Virus record (IMG/VR): IMGVR_UViG_2778261087_000006
Origin: a virus
Taxonomy: Duplodnaviria; Heunggongvirae; Uroviricota; Caudoviricetes
Direction: 5' to 3' (one strand)
Length of the DNA: 10,240 nt
Shown: one piece after another, positions 1 to 4,230 of the stretch
Layout of the letters: every line of letters begins with the position of its first letter
Numbering within the stretch: the stretch's first letter is position 1
Position numbers and translations under genes: made by a program
The notes under the pieces: generated by a model
What the model saw: only the letters and a program-made list of their open reading frames with translations
The model's database searches: none
Told to the model about the DNA's origin: nothing

Positions 1-186
1 TTCTATCAGAGCAGCCATTTTCTTTGCTTTCGCCGGAGTAGCTGTTGCGGTATCGCAGTAATGACGAGTGTCAACAAACTTATCCATGCCATCGATATCA
101 AGTACGCAAAACCATGTGTGATTCGGAATTCCTACAGGTGGTATTTGTTGCCCACGTCGGCGTTTATCAATGAGATATACACTCAC
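1..186 (-). CDS. Partial hypothetical protein; 5' end in window, continues past the left edge
   Basis: Minus-strand frame is open from a GTG at 186-184 to position 1 (60 codons, no stop). The GTG overlaps the TGA stop of the upstream 151-aa gene (GTGA). No family recognised from the fragment (…HTWFCVLDIDGMDKFVDTRHYCD…). Confidence 0.3.
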   Translation of the reverse strand, partial: MSVYLIDKRRRGQQIPPVGIPNHTWFCVLDIDGMDKFVDTRHYCDTATATPAKAKKMAALIE

Positions 187-638
187 TGGTTACCTCCTTT
201 GCGAAGCTCTGCGGCGAACTCGTTAAGTGATATGTAGCAATCTCCAAATGTTAACGAACCGCTCGACTGCATATGCTCCATAGCCATCTCCACCCCCTGC
301 GCCCGGACTTCAGCCAGGAAAGCATCAGTGGTTGGCGTTTCAGGTATCTGTCTCCTCATCCGTTCTATTACATGATTGAACCCGAAGTCTTCCGCGAGAG
401 ATACGTCATCCATATTGTCATTGTCATCCTCAATATCCCGTGATTCTGGAATTGCAGACTTTATTCCCGCATTCTCCGCCGCCAGCGCATTAGCACGCAC
501 CAGTTGCACTTCCAGTTGCGTTGCCAAATCGCTGATCAGCTTTGCCACACTGCGCATATCAACGGCACCACATTCTGCTTTCAGTTCCGAAGCCATCTCA
601 TGCCCGGCGGAAACTAACCCTTTGATATTACTTTCCAT
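183..638 (-). CDS. Hypothetical phage protein, 151 aa, acidic
   Basis: Complete ORF in the track. ATG at 638-636 is preceded by GAGGG about 6 nt upstream on the minus strand. Same orientation as the replication operon. Function not recognised. Confidence 0.6.
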   Translation of the reverse strand: MESNIKGLVSAGHEMASELKAECGAVDMRSVAKLISDLATQLEVQLVRANALAAENAGIKSAIPESRDIEDDNDNMDDVSLAEDFGFNHVIERMRRQIPETPTTDAFLAEVRAQGVEMAMEHMQSSGSLTFGDCYISLNEFAAELRKGGNQ

Positions 639-699: not shown

Positions 700-1044
700 T
701 CAGAACTCTTCGATGTTCCAGCCACCACCTGCTTTCTTTGGTTTAACCGTTACCCCGATGATTCGGAACGGATACTGATCTGCGGCGACTTTGGTTTTCA
801 CCCTGGCGTCGTCGGTCCAGAAACCTTTCACTTCGTGCAGTTCCATCTCGCCGGTGGCGAGCATCACAGCAAAATCGGGCGTATAGAACGTGTTGTCAGC
901 TAACCGAAGCTTGATACCCTCAAATCGATACCAGACGATTTCTCCTGCACGTTTACGCAGCTCAAGGTGCTGGCAATACGCAGATTCTGTTTTGTTCATC
1001 TGGCCTGTTTTGAGTCGACCAAGAGCCTGTATCTGTTTTCTCAT
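700..1044 (-). CDS. Small PD-(D/E)XK-motif protein (putative nuclease fold; resembles DUF1064-type phage proteins), 114 aa
   Basis: Complete ORF. Contains ...YTPDF...ELHEVKG..., which fits a PD-x(n)-(D/E)-x-K catalytic signature. ATG at 1044 is preceded by GAGG with 6-nt spacing on the minus strand. Family assignment is from memory, not a search. Confidence 0.55.
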   Translation of the reverse strand: MRKQIQALGRLKTGQMNKTESAYCQHLELRKRAGEIVWYRFEGIKLRLADNTFYTPDFAVMLATGEMELHEVKGFWTDDARVKTKVAADQYPFRIIGVTVKPKKAGGGWNIEEF

Positions 1045-1047
1045 GAT

Positions 1048-1062
1048 TTACCTCTGAGGTAA
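1048..1062. promoter_or_regulatory. Palindromic operator-like site TTACC-tctga-GGTAA
   Basis: Perfect 5+5 inverted repeat with 5-bp spacer. Overlaps the RBS/+1 region of the minus-strand gene starting at 1044. One of eight copies, all intergenic. Confidence 0.5.
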
Positions 1063-1090
1063 TTAAAAACCACATAAGACATGAAATCAA
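1062..1090 (-). promoter_or_regulatory. Candidate sigma70 promoter for the 1044->1 minus-strand genes
   Basis: On the minus strand: -35 TTGATT (plus 1085-1090), 17-bp spacer, -10 TTTAAT (plus 1062-1067). Flanked by palindromic sites at 1048-1062 and 1110-1124. Confidence 0.35.
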
Positions 1091-1109
1091 TAGAAACTAG
1101 AACATTTTA

Positions 1110-1124
1110 TTACCCGCAAGGTAA
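1110..1124. promoter_or_regulatory. Palindromic operator-like site TTACC-cgcaa-GGTAA
   Basis: Perfect inverted-repeat arms. Lies upstream of the candidate promoter at 1062-1090 on the minus strand. Confidence 0.5.
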
Positions 1125-1136
1125 TCATGTAGACGT

Positions 1137-1156
1137 AAAAAAATGCGCTATCGCGC
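1137..1156 (-). terminator. Candidate weak intrinsic terminator after the P-like gene (tR2-like position)
   Basis: On the minus strand: GCGC-gata-GCGC hairpin (plus 1145-1156) followed directly by a 7-nt U run (plus A-run 1137-1143), 5 nt after the P-like stop. The stem is only 4 bp, so it is probably partial. Confidence 0.3.
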
Positions 1157-1161
1157 TGGTA

Positions 1162-1962
1162 TTACTTGATAAATCCTGCCGCCTTTCCCCGCCTGTATTC
1201 CTCCATCAGCCACTGCGCCGGTGTTATTCCTCCCAGGGTGGCGGCGTTAGGCATGCACCCGAAACTTCGCCCTGGCGGGTGGTAAACGTCTCTCCCTGTG
1301 TCCGGAGGCGTACTCATGGGTTCTGGCTTTGCCTGTATGCTGATCACCGGATCGGGTATCTGCTGTCCGGAAGCCACCTTTTTCGCCCAATCATCGAGCA
1401 GCCTGCGCGCGTGTTTCTCAACCTCAATCTCGCTAAGCTGGCGCTGATACATTGCACGGCGGGTGTCACATACAACCCAGTACATAACCGGATGCCGCCA
1501 CGGGAATCTTTCGGGACCACCAGGATATAAACTTTTTTCCTTGCTGTACCGGTGAAACTCCGCCATCACATCGTCAATGGTGACGCCAAGAACCATCTTG
1601 CTGTCTTTGCACCACTTGATAAATTGCCCTGGCGACGGCCAGAACGGAGATTCACTGGCGCGGGCGTGGCGCATACCAGCAGAAACCTGTTCACGGGTTC
1701 GGATCCCCCCTTCGGCAAACGCAGCAATCCACTGCTGTTTTGCAGCAACTTCCTGCTCTGGCGTCTTCAGGTTGGTTACCACTGCCGCCGGAAACAGTTG
1801 TTTCAACTGTTTGAAAAGGGCATCAACAAGCCTCTCTGCTGACATGTTCACCACATTGTCATTGTTGACGTACTGATGCTCATAACCTGACATGCGAGAA
1901 AGGGCTTCTCCGTCACGGTTTTGTATCGCGGTAAAAACGTTGTTCACAAGAAATCCTCCCAC
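1162..1962 (-). CDS. P: Replication protein P-like (DnaB helicase loader), lambda P family
   Basis: Clear similarity to remembered lambda P: ...QQWIAAFAEGGIRTREQVSAGMRHARASESPFWPSPGQFIKWCKD... versus lambda ...RQWVLAFRENGITTMEQVNAGMRVARRQNRPFLPSPGQFVAWCRE.... Start is uncertain: GTG at 1962 overlaps the O-like gene end, with in-frame ATGs at 1893 and 1845. Confidence 0.85.
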   Translation of the reverse strand: MGGFLVNNVFTAIQNRDGEALSRMSGYEHQYVNNDNVVNMSAERLVDALFKQLKQLFPAAVVTNLKTPEQEVAAKQQWIAAFAEGGIRTREQVSAGMRHARASESPFWPSPGQFIKWCKDSKMVLGVTIDDVMAEFHRYSKEKSLYPGGPERFPWRHPVMYWVVCDTRRAMYQRQLSEIEVEKHARRLLDDWAKKVASGQQIPDPVISIQAKPEPMSTPPDTGRDVYHPPGRSFGCMPNAATLGGITPAQWLMEEYRRGKAAGFIK

Positions 1963-2759
1963 GCTTCAGGGCTGTTCCAGTGCGGAACGTTGTTATCAGG
2001 TAATGTTGATTGCTTCTGTCTGCTAATCTGCAGCCGCCTTGCCAGCTTCTGCTCCCACTGTGCCTGATGGTATGCCTTACCCTCAGCCATCCAGTAAATT
2101 CTGAACTCTGCAAGTTCCTGTGCCGTTGGCAGACTGTCCAGGTAGATTCCCTGCAATGAGCTTTTCCGAAGAAAGTCATCTGATGGCTGCCATTGTTCAT
2201 GCATGACAAATTTGCCTAATTGCCCTGGCCCACCTGGAGGAACAAAGTTATTCATCACGGCGTTGTTTGCGCCGGGGTCATGGGGCACGGAATCCCCGAT
2301 TTTTGTCCTGCTCTCCCTCTCTTGGTTAAATGACTGGTTATATGACTGGTTCTGGATCCCGTTTTTGGGATCATTCAACATCCCGTTTTTGGGATCATTC
2401 AATATCCCGTTTTTGGGTATATTCCCGTTTTCGGGAACATTACCGTTTTCGGGTTCATTACCCCCTTCCCGGTTGCCTTTAATGTTCCCTTTTTTGGTTA
2501 TATTAAGAGAGAAAACCCGTACTCTTTTCGTCGCCCCCTTTCTCTCTCCGGTATCTGAAATAAGCCCCATTTTCATGAGCGATATAAGCCCGGCCTGCAC
2601 GGTTTTTTTATTCAGGCAAGTGTCTTTAACGAGGCGTTCTATGCTGGGGTAGCAGAGGTTATATTCATCGGCTCTGTCAGCCATCGAGAGCAGTATGAGC
2701 TTTAATGACGAGCTCCCTGGATCTGTCTCCCAGGCCCAATCTGTTGCATGTCTGCTCAT
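1944..2759 (-). CDS. Replication initiator, O-like (N-terminal HTH domain, repeat-rich linker, C-terminal domain)
   Basis: Sits immediately upstream of the P-like gene. ATG at 2759 has GGAG 8-11 nt upstream. Central N/G/P-rich peptide repeats (PENGNVPENGNIPKNG...) are encoded by the iteron array, as in lambda O. N-terminal domain is not lambda-O-like in sequence. Confidence 0.75.
   Translation of the reverse strand: MSRHATDWAWETDPGSSSLKLILLSMADRADEYNLCYPSIERLVKDTCLNKKTVQAGLISLMKMGLISDTGERKGATKRVRVFSLNITKKGNIKGNREGGNEPENGNVPENGNIPKNGILNDPKNGMLNDPKNGIQNQSYNQSFNQERESRTKIGDSVPHDPGANNAVMNNFVPPGGPGQLGKFVMHEQWQPSDDFLRKSSLQGIYLDSLPTAQELAEFRIYWMAEGKAYHQAQWEQKLARRLQISRQKQSTLPDNNVPHWNSPEAWEDFL
2354..2460. 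repeat. Iteron array, putative origin of replication inside the O-like gene
   Basis: Five direct repeats with core CCCGTTTT(T/C)GGG starting at 2358, 2382, 2406, 2424 and 2443 (spacing 24, 24, 18, 19 bp). Preceded by tandem ATGACTGGTT x2 (2330-2352) and followed by a more A/T-rich stretch (about 2480-2520). Confidence 0.6.
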
Positions 2760-3055: not shown

Positions 3056-3070
3056 TTACCTTTGAGGTGC
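3056..3070. promoter_or_regulatory. Variant operator-like site TTACC-tttga-GGTGC
   Basis: One arm is perfect and the other degenerate (GGTGC). Located between the Cro-like gene and the zinc-ribbon gene, just past the hairpin at 3085-3104. Confidence 0.35.
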
Positions 3071-3125: not shown

Positions 3126-3356
3126 TCATGAGTAGAAGAAGTATGCCAGTTCTGCTTTTGAGCGCAGCCATTGTCTTGTTTTACAGGCTTTAAAAAGCCC
3201 ATTCATCAATACCTTACCTGGCATTTTGCGCTTACCTGTTAAGTGAGTCTGGATATAGTGACTCGTCGTTCCGGCTTCCTGTGCGAAGGCTTCACGCTCA
3301 TCCGGAGTAAGTGCAAGCCAGTGCTTTTTGAAATCGAAATGTCCGTTATCGCTCAT
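3126..3356 (-). CDS. Cro-like small HTH DNA-binding protein, 76 aa
   Basis: Complete ORF, divergent from the repressor-like gene across an operator-rich intergenic region. First gene of the minus-strand operon. HTH-like segment ...EAFAQEAGTTSHYIQTHLTGKRKMPGK.... Confidence 0.6.
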   Translation of the reverse strand: MSDNGHFDFKKHWLALTPDEREAFAQEAGTTSHYIQTHLTGKRKMPGKVLMNGLFKACKTRQWLRSKAELAYFFYS

Positions 3357-3381: not shown

Positions 3382-3410
3382 ATAATAAATATTCACCCAT
3401 AAGGTAACAA
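3382..3410 (-). promoter_or_regulatory. Candidate pR-like promoter for the Cro-like operon
   Basis: On the minus strand: -35 TTGTTA (plus 3405-3410), 17-bp spacer, -10 TATTAT (plus 3382-3387). The operator-like site at 3393-3407 sits in the spacer. Confidence 0.4.
3393..3407. promoter_or_regulatory. Operator-like site TCACC-cataa-GGTAA (variant)
   Basis: Inverted repeat with one mismatch in the left arm. Overlaps the pR-like promoter spacer. Confidence 0.4.
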
Positions 3411-3423
3411 AAATCAAGGATAG

Positions 3424-3438
3424 TTACCTATGGGGTGC
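3424..3438. promoter_or_regulatory. Operator-like site TTACC-tatgg-GGTGC (variant)
   Basis: Left arm perfect, right arm degenerate. Adjacent to the site at 3441-3455, centre-to-centre 17 bp. Confidence 0.4.
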
Positions 3439-3440
3439 AT

Positions 3441-3455
3441 TTACCTATTGGGTAA
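3441..3455. promoter_or_regulatory. Operator-like site TTACC-tattg-GGTAA
   Basis: Perfect palindrome arms. About 55 bp upstream of the repressor-like gene start, in the position of an autoregulatory (pRM-type) operator. Confidence 0.5.
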
Positions 3456-3510: not shown

Positions 3511-4095
3511 ATGAAAAGTATCCAGGACGTCCGCAGGCAAAATCTCAACGACTTGATCGACCGTGAATTCAATGGTGTTCAGACGCGGATGGCAGAAAAA
3601 CTTGGAACTCAGGCAAATCTGGTAAACCGCTGGGCTCTTGGCAAGAAGGTTATCGGCGACCAGGTTGCGCGAAAAATTGAAGCTGCCGCCAATAAACCCC
3701 GTAACTGGCTTGATATCGATCGCTCGCTTTCTCAGGAAGGTTTTCAGCCTGTCGGCCCAAGCGACATTGGTCAGCTGGCGGCTCACAACCTAGAACGCTG
3801 GATGAGCGAAAGCCGCGACCTTTCAACGCAGGGAAAACTTCACCGCGCATCCGGCGTCGCCCAGGTGACAATCAGCCGCCTGTTAAACAATGAGGTCAGT
3901 GTTTCCATTTCCACCCTGGAGAATGTTGCATCCGCATTCGGGCGTCACGGCTATGAATTACTGATTCACCCGCACGACCCTGCGACCATCAACTATGACC
4001 GCTCGCGCTACGCATTGTTACCTGAAACAGAGAAGGCAAAGATCGAAAGTTACATTGAATTTGTCATCAGCCAGAACGAAAAAAACAAACAATAA
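3511..4095 (+). CDS. Putative prophage repressor (CI-position), 194 aa, two predicted HTH domains, no S24 peptidase domain
   Basis: Complete ORF divergent from the Cro-like gene and followed by a strong terminator, then the pL-like promoter. N-terminal Cro/YdaS-like HTH (...GVQTRMAEKLGTQANLVNRW...) and a second XRE-like HTH (...ASGVAQVTISRLLNNEVSVSISTLENVA...). No obvious SD before the ATG, which resembles leaderless or weakly initiated cI genes. Confidence 0.65.
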   Translation: MKSIQDVRRQNLNDLIDREFNGVQTRMAEKLGTQANLVNRWALGKKVIGDQVARKIEAAANKPRNWLDIDRSLSQEGFQPVGPSDIGQLAAHNLERWMSESRDLSTQGKLHRASGVAQVTISRLLNNEVSVSISTLENVASAFGRHGYELLIHPHDPATINYDRSRYALLPETEKAKIESYIEFVISQNEKNKQ

Positions 4096-4116: not shown

Positions 4117-4141
4117 AAGCCGCCTCATGGCGGCTTTTTTA
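4117..4141 (+). terminator. Rho-independent terminator downstream of the repressor-like gene
   Basis: 8-bp GC-rich stem AAGCCGCC / GGCGGCTT with loop TCAT, followed by a run of 6-7 T. Lies 22 nt after the stop codon. Confidence 0.7.
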
Positions 4142-4153
4142 TTGCCTGTGCGA

Positions 4154-4168
4154 TTACCTGATGGGTAA
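4154..4168. promoter_or_regulatory. Operator-like site TTACC-tgatg-GGTAA
   Basis: Perfect palindrome arms, 20 bp upstream of the -35 of the pL-like promoter. Confidence 0.5.
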
Positions 4169-4187
4169 TTTTTTTAACTCATATCTA

Positions 4188-4216
4188 TTGACATCAAACC
4201 AGATACGCATAATTAT
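4188..4216 (+). promoter_or_regulatory. pL-like promoter for the plus-strand early operon
   Basis: Consensus -35 TTGACA at 4188-4193. Candidate -10 AATTAT at 4211-4216 with 17-bp spacer (CATAAT at 4208-4213 is an alternative). The operator-like site at 4216-4230 overlaps the -10/+1 region. Confidence 0.5.
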
Positions 4217-4230
4217 TACCTCAACGGTAA
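4216..4230. promoter_or_regulatory. Operator-like site TTACC-tcaac-GGTAA
   Basis: Perfect palindrome arms overlapping the -10/start region of the pL-like promoter. An extra GGTAAC half-site follows at 4239-4244. Confidence 0.5.

Follow-up and report, generated by a model that had tools for sequence, protein, structure and literature searches.

We consider it probable that the intergenic stretch at positions 1045-1161 serves a Uetakevirus prophage as an early promoter module gated by the phage repressor. The elements that lead us to this reading are a weak terminator-like hairpin, a candidate promoter and two palindromes, the latter with the same sequence as palindromes found at the predicted immunity region. 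Their arrangement repeats that of the leftward early promoter of the same phage.

The window (the whole stretch of 10,240 nucleotides that was analysed) reads as the early region of a Uetakevirus (phiV10/epsilon15-type) prophage of E. coli. When positions 650-1250 were searched by megablast, nearly all of the 24 phage records matched belonged to the phiV10/epsilon15 group (genus Uetakevirus; 83-98% identity), and the same junction between P and the DUF1064 gene is contained in 530 of 5426 complete E. coli genomes. The minus strand carries a Cro-like gene (3356..3126; 76 aa; phrog_35 'transcriptional repressor', E 5.6e-13), an O-like initiator gene (2759..1944; DnaT/HTH) with a small gene of 66-87 aa between the two, and the P gene (1962..1162, with its TAA at 1164-1162), which matches Pfam Phage_lambda_P (E 1.5e-56) and bears the annotation 'replication protein P' both in phiV10 and in RefSeq genomes of E. 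coli. Beyond the intergenic stretch, the next unit begins with a DUF1064 gene (1044..700, minus strand; 114 aa; Pfam DUF1064) and continues with an Ead/Ea22-like gene (638..183, minus strand; 151 aa), whose match to Pfam Ead_Ea22, at 27 bits, equals the cut-off. In phiV10 this unit extends to p55, annotated as a transcriptional regulator, and is followed by a terminator. On the plus strand, the gene for the prophage repressor, rep (3511..4095; Pfam HTH_3, with a match to PDB 5D50), is followed by a strong terminator, a near-consensus pL and the recombination genes. We treated as spurious a plus-strand reading frame at 1081-1530 (149 aa) that lies antisense to P, with its start within the cassette. 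Within the O-like gene, tandem 24-bp repeats at 2366-2409, TGGGATCATTCAA(C/T)ATCCCGTTTTTGGG, encode a repeated PKNG(I/M)LND peptide; like those in lambda O, they are probably iterons of the replication origin.

The preliminary description of this DNA had listed a hairpin with U7, two palindromes and a promoter after P, and reading the sequence recovers every one of these on the minus strand where it had placed them. The terminator-like element (1137..1156) is a GCGC-GATA-GCGC hairpin at 1156-1145, followed by an A and by T7 (U7 in the RNA) at 1143-1137. Next comes the distal operator, ATTACC-TTGCG-GGTAAT (1109..1125), an exact match to TTACC-N5-GGTAA whose centre lies about 62 bp upstream of the predicted start. 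The candidate -35 hexamer, TTGATT (1085..1090, minus strand), falls within a block, CTATTGA, that shows no variation in an alignment of distant relatives and recurs at pL as part of TCTATTGA. The candidate -10 hexamer, TTTAAT (1062..1067, minus strand), lies 17 nt past the -35, and its final T doubles as the opening base of the proximal operator. The latter, TTACCTC-A-GAGGTAA (1048..1062), is a perfect 15-bp palindrome and again an exact match to the motif. With TTTAAT as -10, transcription is predicted to start near 1055, and with respect to that start the proximal operator would extend from about -7 to +8. That this second palindrome overlaps the ribosome-binding site of the 700-1044 gene, as had been proposed, is borne out by the GAGG Shine-Dalgarno sequence (1054-1051), which lies inside it and 6 nt ahead of the DUF1064 ATG at 1044.

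The palindrome over the ribosome-binding site could also be imagined to act as structured RNA, and we rejected this: the fold is weak (-4.2 kcal/mol, z -1.2) and the left half lies upstream of the predicted start. Because the leader of the predicted transcript would be only about 11 nt long, the proximal palindrome cannot work as an RNA hairpin. A scan of the region against Rfam gave a single chance match, to a snoRNA (E 0.68).

The palindromes belong to a small set of sites shared with the immunity region. Allowing at most one mismatch, TTACC-N5-GGTAA occurs six times in the window, at 1048 and 1110 (the cassette), 3393 and 3441 (OR), and 4154 and 4216 (OL). Shuffled versions of the sequence held 0.20 such sites on average and none of 200 reached six, which excludes chance as the source of the palindromes. 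OR, between the cro-like gene and rep, has three operators (3393-3407, 3424-3438 with two mismatches, and 3441-3455), and the promoter scan places there a pR-like TTGTTA-17-TATTAT on the minus strand at 3410-3382. The pL/OL cassette (4117..4230, plus strand) is collinear with 1045-1161: a strong terminator at 4117-4136, the distal OL operator at 4154-4168, the near-consensus pL promoter (TTGACA at 4188-4193, a 17-nt spacer and AATTAT at 4211-4216) and the proximal OL operator at 4216-4230. Both cassettes read, in order, a T-run, GATTACC-N5-GGTAAT, TCTATTGA containing the -35, 17 nt, the -10 hexamer and ATTACCTCA..GGTAA, and in both the operators are spaced 62 bp apart. From this collinearity and equal spacing we take the 1045-1161 locus to be a second copy of the pL-type operator-promoter-operator cassette.

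The protein presumed to bind all of the TTACC-N5-GGTAA sites is Rep. The product of rep matches the SPC32H repressor structure 5D50 along almost its whole length (E 4.1e-42; residues 1-190 of 194). It could instead be supposed that some other protein, for example the 76-aa Cro-like product or the late regulator, is the main ligand of the palindromes, and that the locus is a site of lytic shut-off or activation. The Cro-like gene (phrog_35) does adjoin OR, and in lambda-type switches Cro and CI share operators. Such binding is compatible with binding by Rep, however, and pR and pL, at which the prophage repressor has to act, are overlapped by sites of identical sequence; the annotation of epsilon15, moreover, names the repressor. 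Recognition mainly by another protein is thus very improbable, and what merit the idea has would add to Rep control rather than compete with it. Since the operators of the cassette have the same sequence as those of OR and OL, the DUF1064 gene and the genes downstream of it very probably form one transcription unit repressed directly by Rep.

A further site may extend this pattern to the replication genes. On the minus strand, 14 nt past the cro terminator (3104-3085), lies a degenerate operator, GCACCTCAAAGGTAA (3070-3056), and between it and the genes for the 66-aa protein, O and P there is a possible promoter, TTGATC-17-CAAAAT. At the equivalent of 3056-3070, phiV10 has GTACCTCAAAGGTAA, with a single mismatch, and BUCT554 also has a one-mismatch site there. 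The replication genes, too, may have their own Rep-influenced start.

The arrangement is widely retained. Among 81 phiV10-like sources, comprising 80 IMG/VR loci picked by similarity of the repressor together with the window, 73 have both of the 62-bp operator pairs. These sources yield 66 distinct versions of the junction, in which column entropy picks out as constant the operator half-sites, CTATTGATT, the length of the 17-nt spacer and the -10 hexamer. The changes cluster in the operator centres and in a stretch of about 10 nt (about 1135-1126) that separates the T-run from the distal operator. Half-sites are thus fixed and centres free to vary, as expected for selected operator halves. Outside this set, the cassette is found in Enterobacter phage BUCT554, in Salmonella phages SPN1S/SPC32H and epsilon15, in a Klebsiella phage, and in an E. 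coli prophage with a Rep of 59% identity. In epsilon15 the same cassette has other neighbours, with a DnaT-like gene upstream and a RuvC-like gene downstream.

Whether a working promoter lies between the operators is a separate question from their identity. On its own, TTGATT-17-TTTAAT, which agrees with the consensus at 9 of 12 positions, is not significant in AT-rich DNA, and the promoter scan omits it, as its rule requires an A at the second position of the -10, where the sequence has T. Both hexamers and the 17-nt spacing are, however, unchanged in the 66 junction versions, they are also retained in epsilon15, SPN1S, BUCT554 and the E. coli prophage with the 59% Rep, and in distant relatives the -10 is either TTTAAT or TTAAAT with a spacer that is always 17 nt. 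The candidate promoter of the preliminary description is present where it was proposed, with hexamers and spacing conserved across the genus. The scan did report an alternative, TCTACA-18-TAAAAT at 1133-1104, which we rejected: its -35 falls in a hypervariable stretch and is missing from epsilon15, SPN1S and OL.

These observations bear on the view that the palindromes are Rep sites with no functional promoter between them, serving as auxiliary or looping sites or as roadblocks, with DUF1064 expressed solely by read-through. Sites of this kind might reinforce repression at OR and OL, in the manner of lambda OL-OR looping or of the flanking sites of phage 186, or might block stray read-through in the lysogen. 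The weak hairpin makes read-through plausible, the promoter is only a 9/12 match that the scan does not list, and the locus lies about 2.3 kb from OR, a distance over which repressor-mediated looping is known in lambda. Against this, the hexamers and their exact 17-nt spacing stay constant while unconstrained neighbouring positions are nearly saturated with change, and the collinear pL has a near-consensus promoter in the same register. A better promoter, TTGACA-17-AATTAT, also stands at the same position in L087/L088, where the operators are rearranged. We accordingly regard promoterless palindromes as unlikely.

The two loci just mentioned, L087 (a Serratia-type prophage) and L088, are more distant by their Rep and deserve a fuller description. 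At the position of the cassette both have a terminator followed by TTGCAA/TTGACA-17-AATGAT/AATTAT; the first operator falls within the promoter spacer, and the second, 18 bp further on, covers the start site. That a promoter and two operators are retained while their geometry has changed is, to our minds, the strongest in silico argument for a Rep-controlled promoter here.

We looked for relatives of another immunity type, in which OR/OL and the sites past the replication genes might have changed together, and came upon none: Rep homologues down to 52-59% identity, in Serratia and E. coli, all use TTACC/GGTAA. The identity of these half-sites among repressors of 52-59% identity in Serratia, Raoultella and E. 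coli prophages (P0057-P0082; L087-L089) is an observation in its own right. DNA-binding specificity, and possibly immunity, seems to be unusually uniform across the Rep family, unlike in the lambdoid phages, which have many immunity types.

Some positions of the two cassettes are hypervariable among phages that are otherwise nearly identical: 1115-1119 and about 1126-1135 of the window at one, and 4146-4153 and 4159-4163 at OL. At the centre of the distal operator we count 27 different pentamers in 75 loci, and nucleotide diversity (pi) reaches 0.46 per site, compared with 0.07 at third codon positions of DUF1064 and 0.026 in the flanks. Pairs that differ by less than 1% in the flanks already differ by about 20% at the hypervariable positions, yet the stretch is of constant length. 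Neutral saturation could be the cause, as could selection on affinity, gene conversion, or a hotspot of mutation where protein is bound to the DNA.

The preliminary description had also placed a terminator between P and the promoter. The hairpin and its U7 are there, but as a terminator the element is much weaker than that description implied: with 4 bp in its stem, it folds locally at -8.4 kcal/mol (z -2.07), compared with -21.1 and -15.0 kcal/mol for the terminators after rep and cro, respectively. Our terminator scan does not list the hairpin after P, its stem being under 5 bp. The phiV10 record, for its part, labels the equivalent hairpin a putative rho-independent terminator. The sequence GCGC..GCGCATTTTTTTAC is constant across the genus and the loop varies; stem and T-run are constant in the 66 junction versions from close relatives and in five more distant relatives. 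The genus alignment holds no compensatory changes in the stem. Because the hairpin is weak, with a stem of only 4 bp, transcription from upstream could still read through it and account for a large share of expression downstream. Some such read-through is likely, and the promoter may supplement rather than replace it.

The motif marks many units besides this one. The complete phiV10 genome contains 14 motif sites where 1.3 are expected, and 12 of the 14 are intergenic, although intergenic DNA makes up 6.5% of that genome (P 4.5e-13). The motif precedes terS, gp3, the tail fibre gene, the lysis cassette, int, the unit after cro, pL, pR and the DUF1064 unit; a genome of the phiV10 type has about nine operator loci. 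The remaining two phiV10 sites lie at the very start of the annotated terS frame, and in epsilon15 the homologous pair closely precedes the start codon of terS. With the phiV10 terS start as annotated (position 41), the operators fall inside the reading frame; that start has therefore probably been placed too far upstream. At terS the operators form a tandem pair, 18 bp apart, on the ribosome-binding site and start, just past a terminator; this pair is seen in phiV10 (L005, 87-119), epsilon15 (L006, 12-45), L002 (9441-9475), L088 (1167-1199) and L089 (1680-1712). The late operon thereby appears to be under direct Rep control as well.

Part of this pattern is already recorded. The epsilon15 RefSeq entry (NC_004775.2) carries the feature 'protein_bind: repressor' at seven such sites, an annotation that may itself be computational. 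The marked sites include 35906-35922, which is the homologue of 1109-1125, the OL sites, and sites before terS, gp3 and the tail fibre gene; the proximal operator, the promoter and the OR sites are left unmarked. The assignment of this sequence as the Rep footprint comes from the location of the motif and from this database annotation, and should be read with that in mind. In the paper on vB_EcoP_ZX5, four promoters are predicted and no operators are defined. A text search of the accessible literature for the motif and for Uetakevirus operators returned nothing relevant, and in the papers covered we found no experimental mapping of the 1045-1161 promoter. The feature is best described as a conserved, already partly annotated Rep operator/promoter module of Uetakeviruses.

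The breadth of operator placement also bears on why the DUF1064 gene is gated. Its product matches DUF1064 (PF06356) at 31.3 bits against a gathering cut-off of 24.7 and phrog_190, 'Holliday junction resolvase', at E 7e-43, with a weak match to T7 endonuclease I (1M0D; E 0.19). DUF1064 has been predicted to be a PD-(D/E)XK nuclease (PMC1189080), and the 114-aa protein is a candidate T7-endonuclease-I-like junction resolvase. A DUF1064 gene is present in the window (700-1044), phiV10, SPN1S and BUCT554, and is swapped, at the same position, for a RuvC-family gene in epsilon15 (L004, 8988-9452). The exchange looks like a non-orthologous replacement and supports a junction-resolvase role for DUF1064.

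The preliminary description had suggested that the nuclease-motif gene is kept silent as though its product were harmful in the lysogen. In favour of silencing a toxic nuclease as the purpose of the cassette, the unit opens with a gene for a predicted PD-(D/E)XK nuclease, the replacement of this gene in epsilon15 likewise encodes a structure-specific, RuvC-like nuclease, and the first gene in L088 is also DUF1064-like, though below the Pfam cut-off. The same operators, however, stand ahead of most units of these phages, among them terS, int, the lysis genes, the tail fibre gene and the unit that follows cro, and in L087 the cassette precedes an unrelated 157-aa gene with no Pfam match. Nor do phages with DUF1064 always gate it in this way: in the temperate Pseudomonas phage F116 the gene sits mid-operon, overlapping an upstream HNH gene, with neither promoter nor operator, and the motif is absent from Vibrio phage X29, which carries DUF1064. 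Lytic genes are silenced in every prophage, so silence is not specific to toxicity. A purpose tied to nuclease toxicity is in our view decidedly unlikely, and the idea that the nuclease is singled out as harmful is not supported; as far as the placement of operators can tell, the gating is a property of the Rep-type immunity system and not of the nuclease. The broader proposal, that these genes form an independently repressed unit wired into the immunity circuit, is well supported in silico by operators of OR/OL sequence, a pL-type anatomy and conservation.

The module might operate as follows. Transcription arriving from the replication genes would meet the weak hairpin and U7, and the sigma-70-type promoter TTGATT-17-TTTAAT would begin a new unit with a very short leader. 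This unit would cover the DUF1064 nuclease gene, genes of the Ead/Eae type and, in complete relatives, a regulator gene that directly precedes the late ones. Both TTACC-N5-GGTAA operators would be occupied in the lysogen by the SPC32H-type Rep. Occupancy of the proximal one, which covers the end of the -10, the start and the ribosome-binding site, would occlude RNA polymerase; the distal one, 62 bp or about 5.9 helical turns away, would lie on nearly the same face of the helix. A summary in PMC9638917 describes SPC32H Rep as a DNA-binding tetramer in which two pairs of N-terminal domains recognise palindromic sites and which the antirepressor Ant disassembles. Since two DNA-binding units are reported for the Rep tetramer, a single one could bridge both operators and loop out the promoter, as it may at pL. 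Removal of Rep by the antirepressor would then let the promoter fire along with pR and pL, and antitermination of the lambda N type would be needless for reaching the DUF1064 unit.

A more elaborate version of Rep gating is suggested by the spacing of terminator and operator. The distal operator always starts exactly 12 nt past U7, though the intervening sequence is hypervariable, and the terminator-operator spacing at OL is similar. The module could therefore be imagined as a bifunctional insulator-promoter, in which a polymerase blocked by Rep stalls with its active site on the U-tract and the terminator is efficient only while Rep is bound. We think this doubtful. If true, it would give tight insulation in the lysogen, with read-through and fresh initiation after induction; if the design recurred at the roughly nine operator loci, the whole programme would be run from one repressor without antitermination. 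The unusual diversity of the operator centres (0.46 against 0.07) could in that case reflect selection that tunes the occupancy of individual sites, or a hotspot at DNA that is permanently bound by protein.

The closest known relative of this arrangement is the Rep/Ant system of epsilon15 and SPC32H, which shares the genus-level organisation, the 17-bp ATTACC-N5-GGTAAT site and a homologous Rep. Epsilon15 differs in having a RuvC-like gene in place of DUF1064 and no P gene, and its record marks the distal site alone at the cassette. Lambda offers the next comparison. There too, palindromic operators overlap the promoters of the early operons (pL/OL and pR/OR), the order of repressor, cro-like, O-like and P genes is the same, and a terminator, tR2, follows the replication genes. 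We know of no third CI-controlled promoter after P in lambda, where the genes of the nin region are reached by N-antiterminated transcripts from pR. The operators of lambda are arranged in tandem, whereas here they flank the promoter, 62 bp apart, and Rep is a two-HTH, antirepressor-controlled protein, unlike the LexA-like, self-cleaving CI. In a look that was not rigorous, we recognised neither an N-like gene nor a nut site. The first gene of the pL operon (53 aa) and a 344-aa gene have no Pfam match, and in a PHROGs scan the 53-aa product matches only phrog_898, of unknown function.

Two further systems distribute repressor sites beyond the immunity region. In N15, the CB repressor was shown experimentally to bind its OR sites and two OL sites at the repA promoter (PMC4488713). 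CB of N15/phiKO2 resembles Rep in that its related operators serve the immunity region and, beyond it, a second promoter with another function; it differs in repressor family and operator sequence, and its extra target is a plasmid replication gene. The stoperators of mycobacteriophage L5 (PMC1934351) are many gp71 sites scattered in the prophage genome, mostly in short intergenic regions. Scattered placement is the likeness to L5. The L5 sites are asymmetric and orientation-dependent and act on elongating polymerase, whereas those described here are symmetric palindromes over or beside promoter hexamers. We ruled out the L5 type of stoperator on the grounds that these sites are perfect or near-perfect palindromes flanking or overlapping such hexamers.

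The module leaves the current understanding of phage regulation unchanged, and its key site had already been flagged in the epsilon15 reference record. What it shows is how the early genes of a common group of E. coli and Salmonella prophages are wired. Knowledge of this wiring is of use in annotating such prophages and in predicting which genes are derepressed on induction, and compact Rep-controlled promoter cassettes are potential genetic parts. Rather than being served by one antiterminated transcript from pR, each unit of these prophages appears, from the distribution of operators, to start from a promoter of its own, over which one and the same antirepressor-controlled repressor has direct control.
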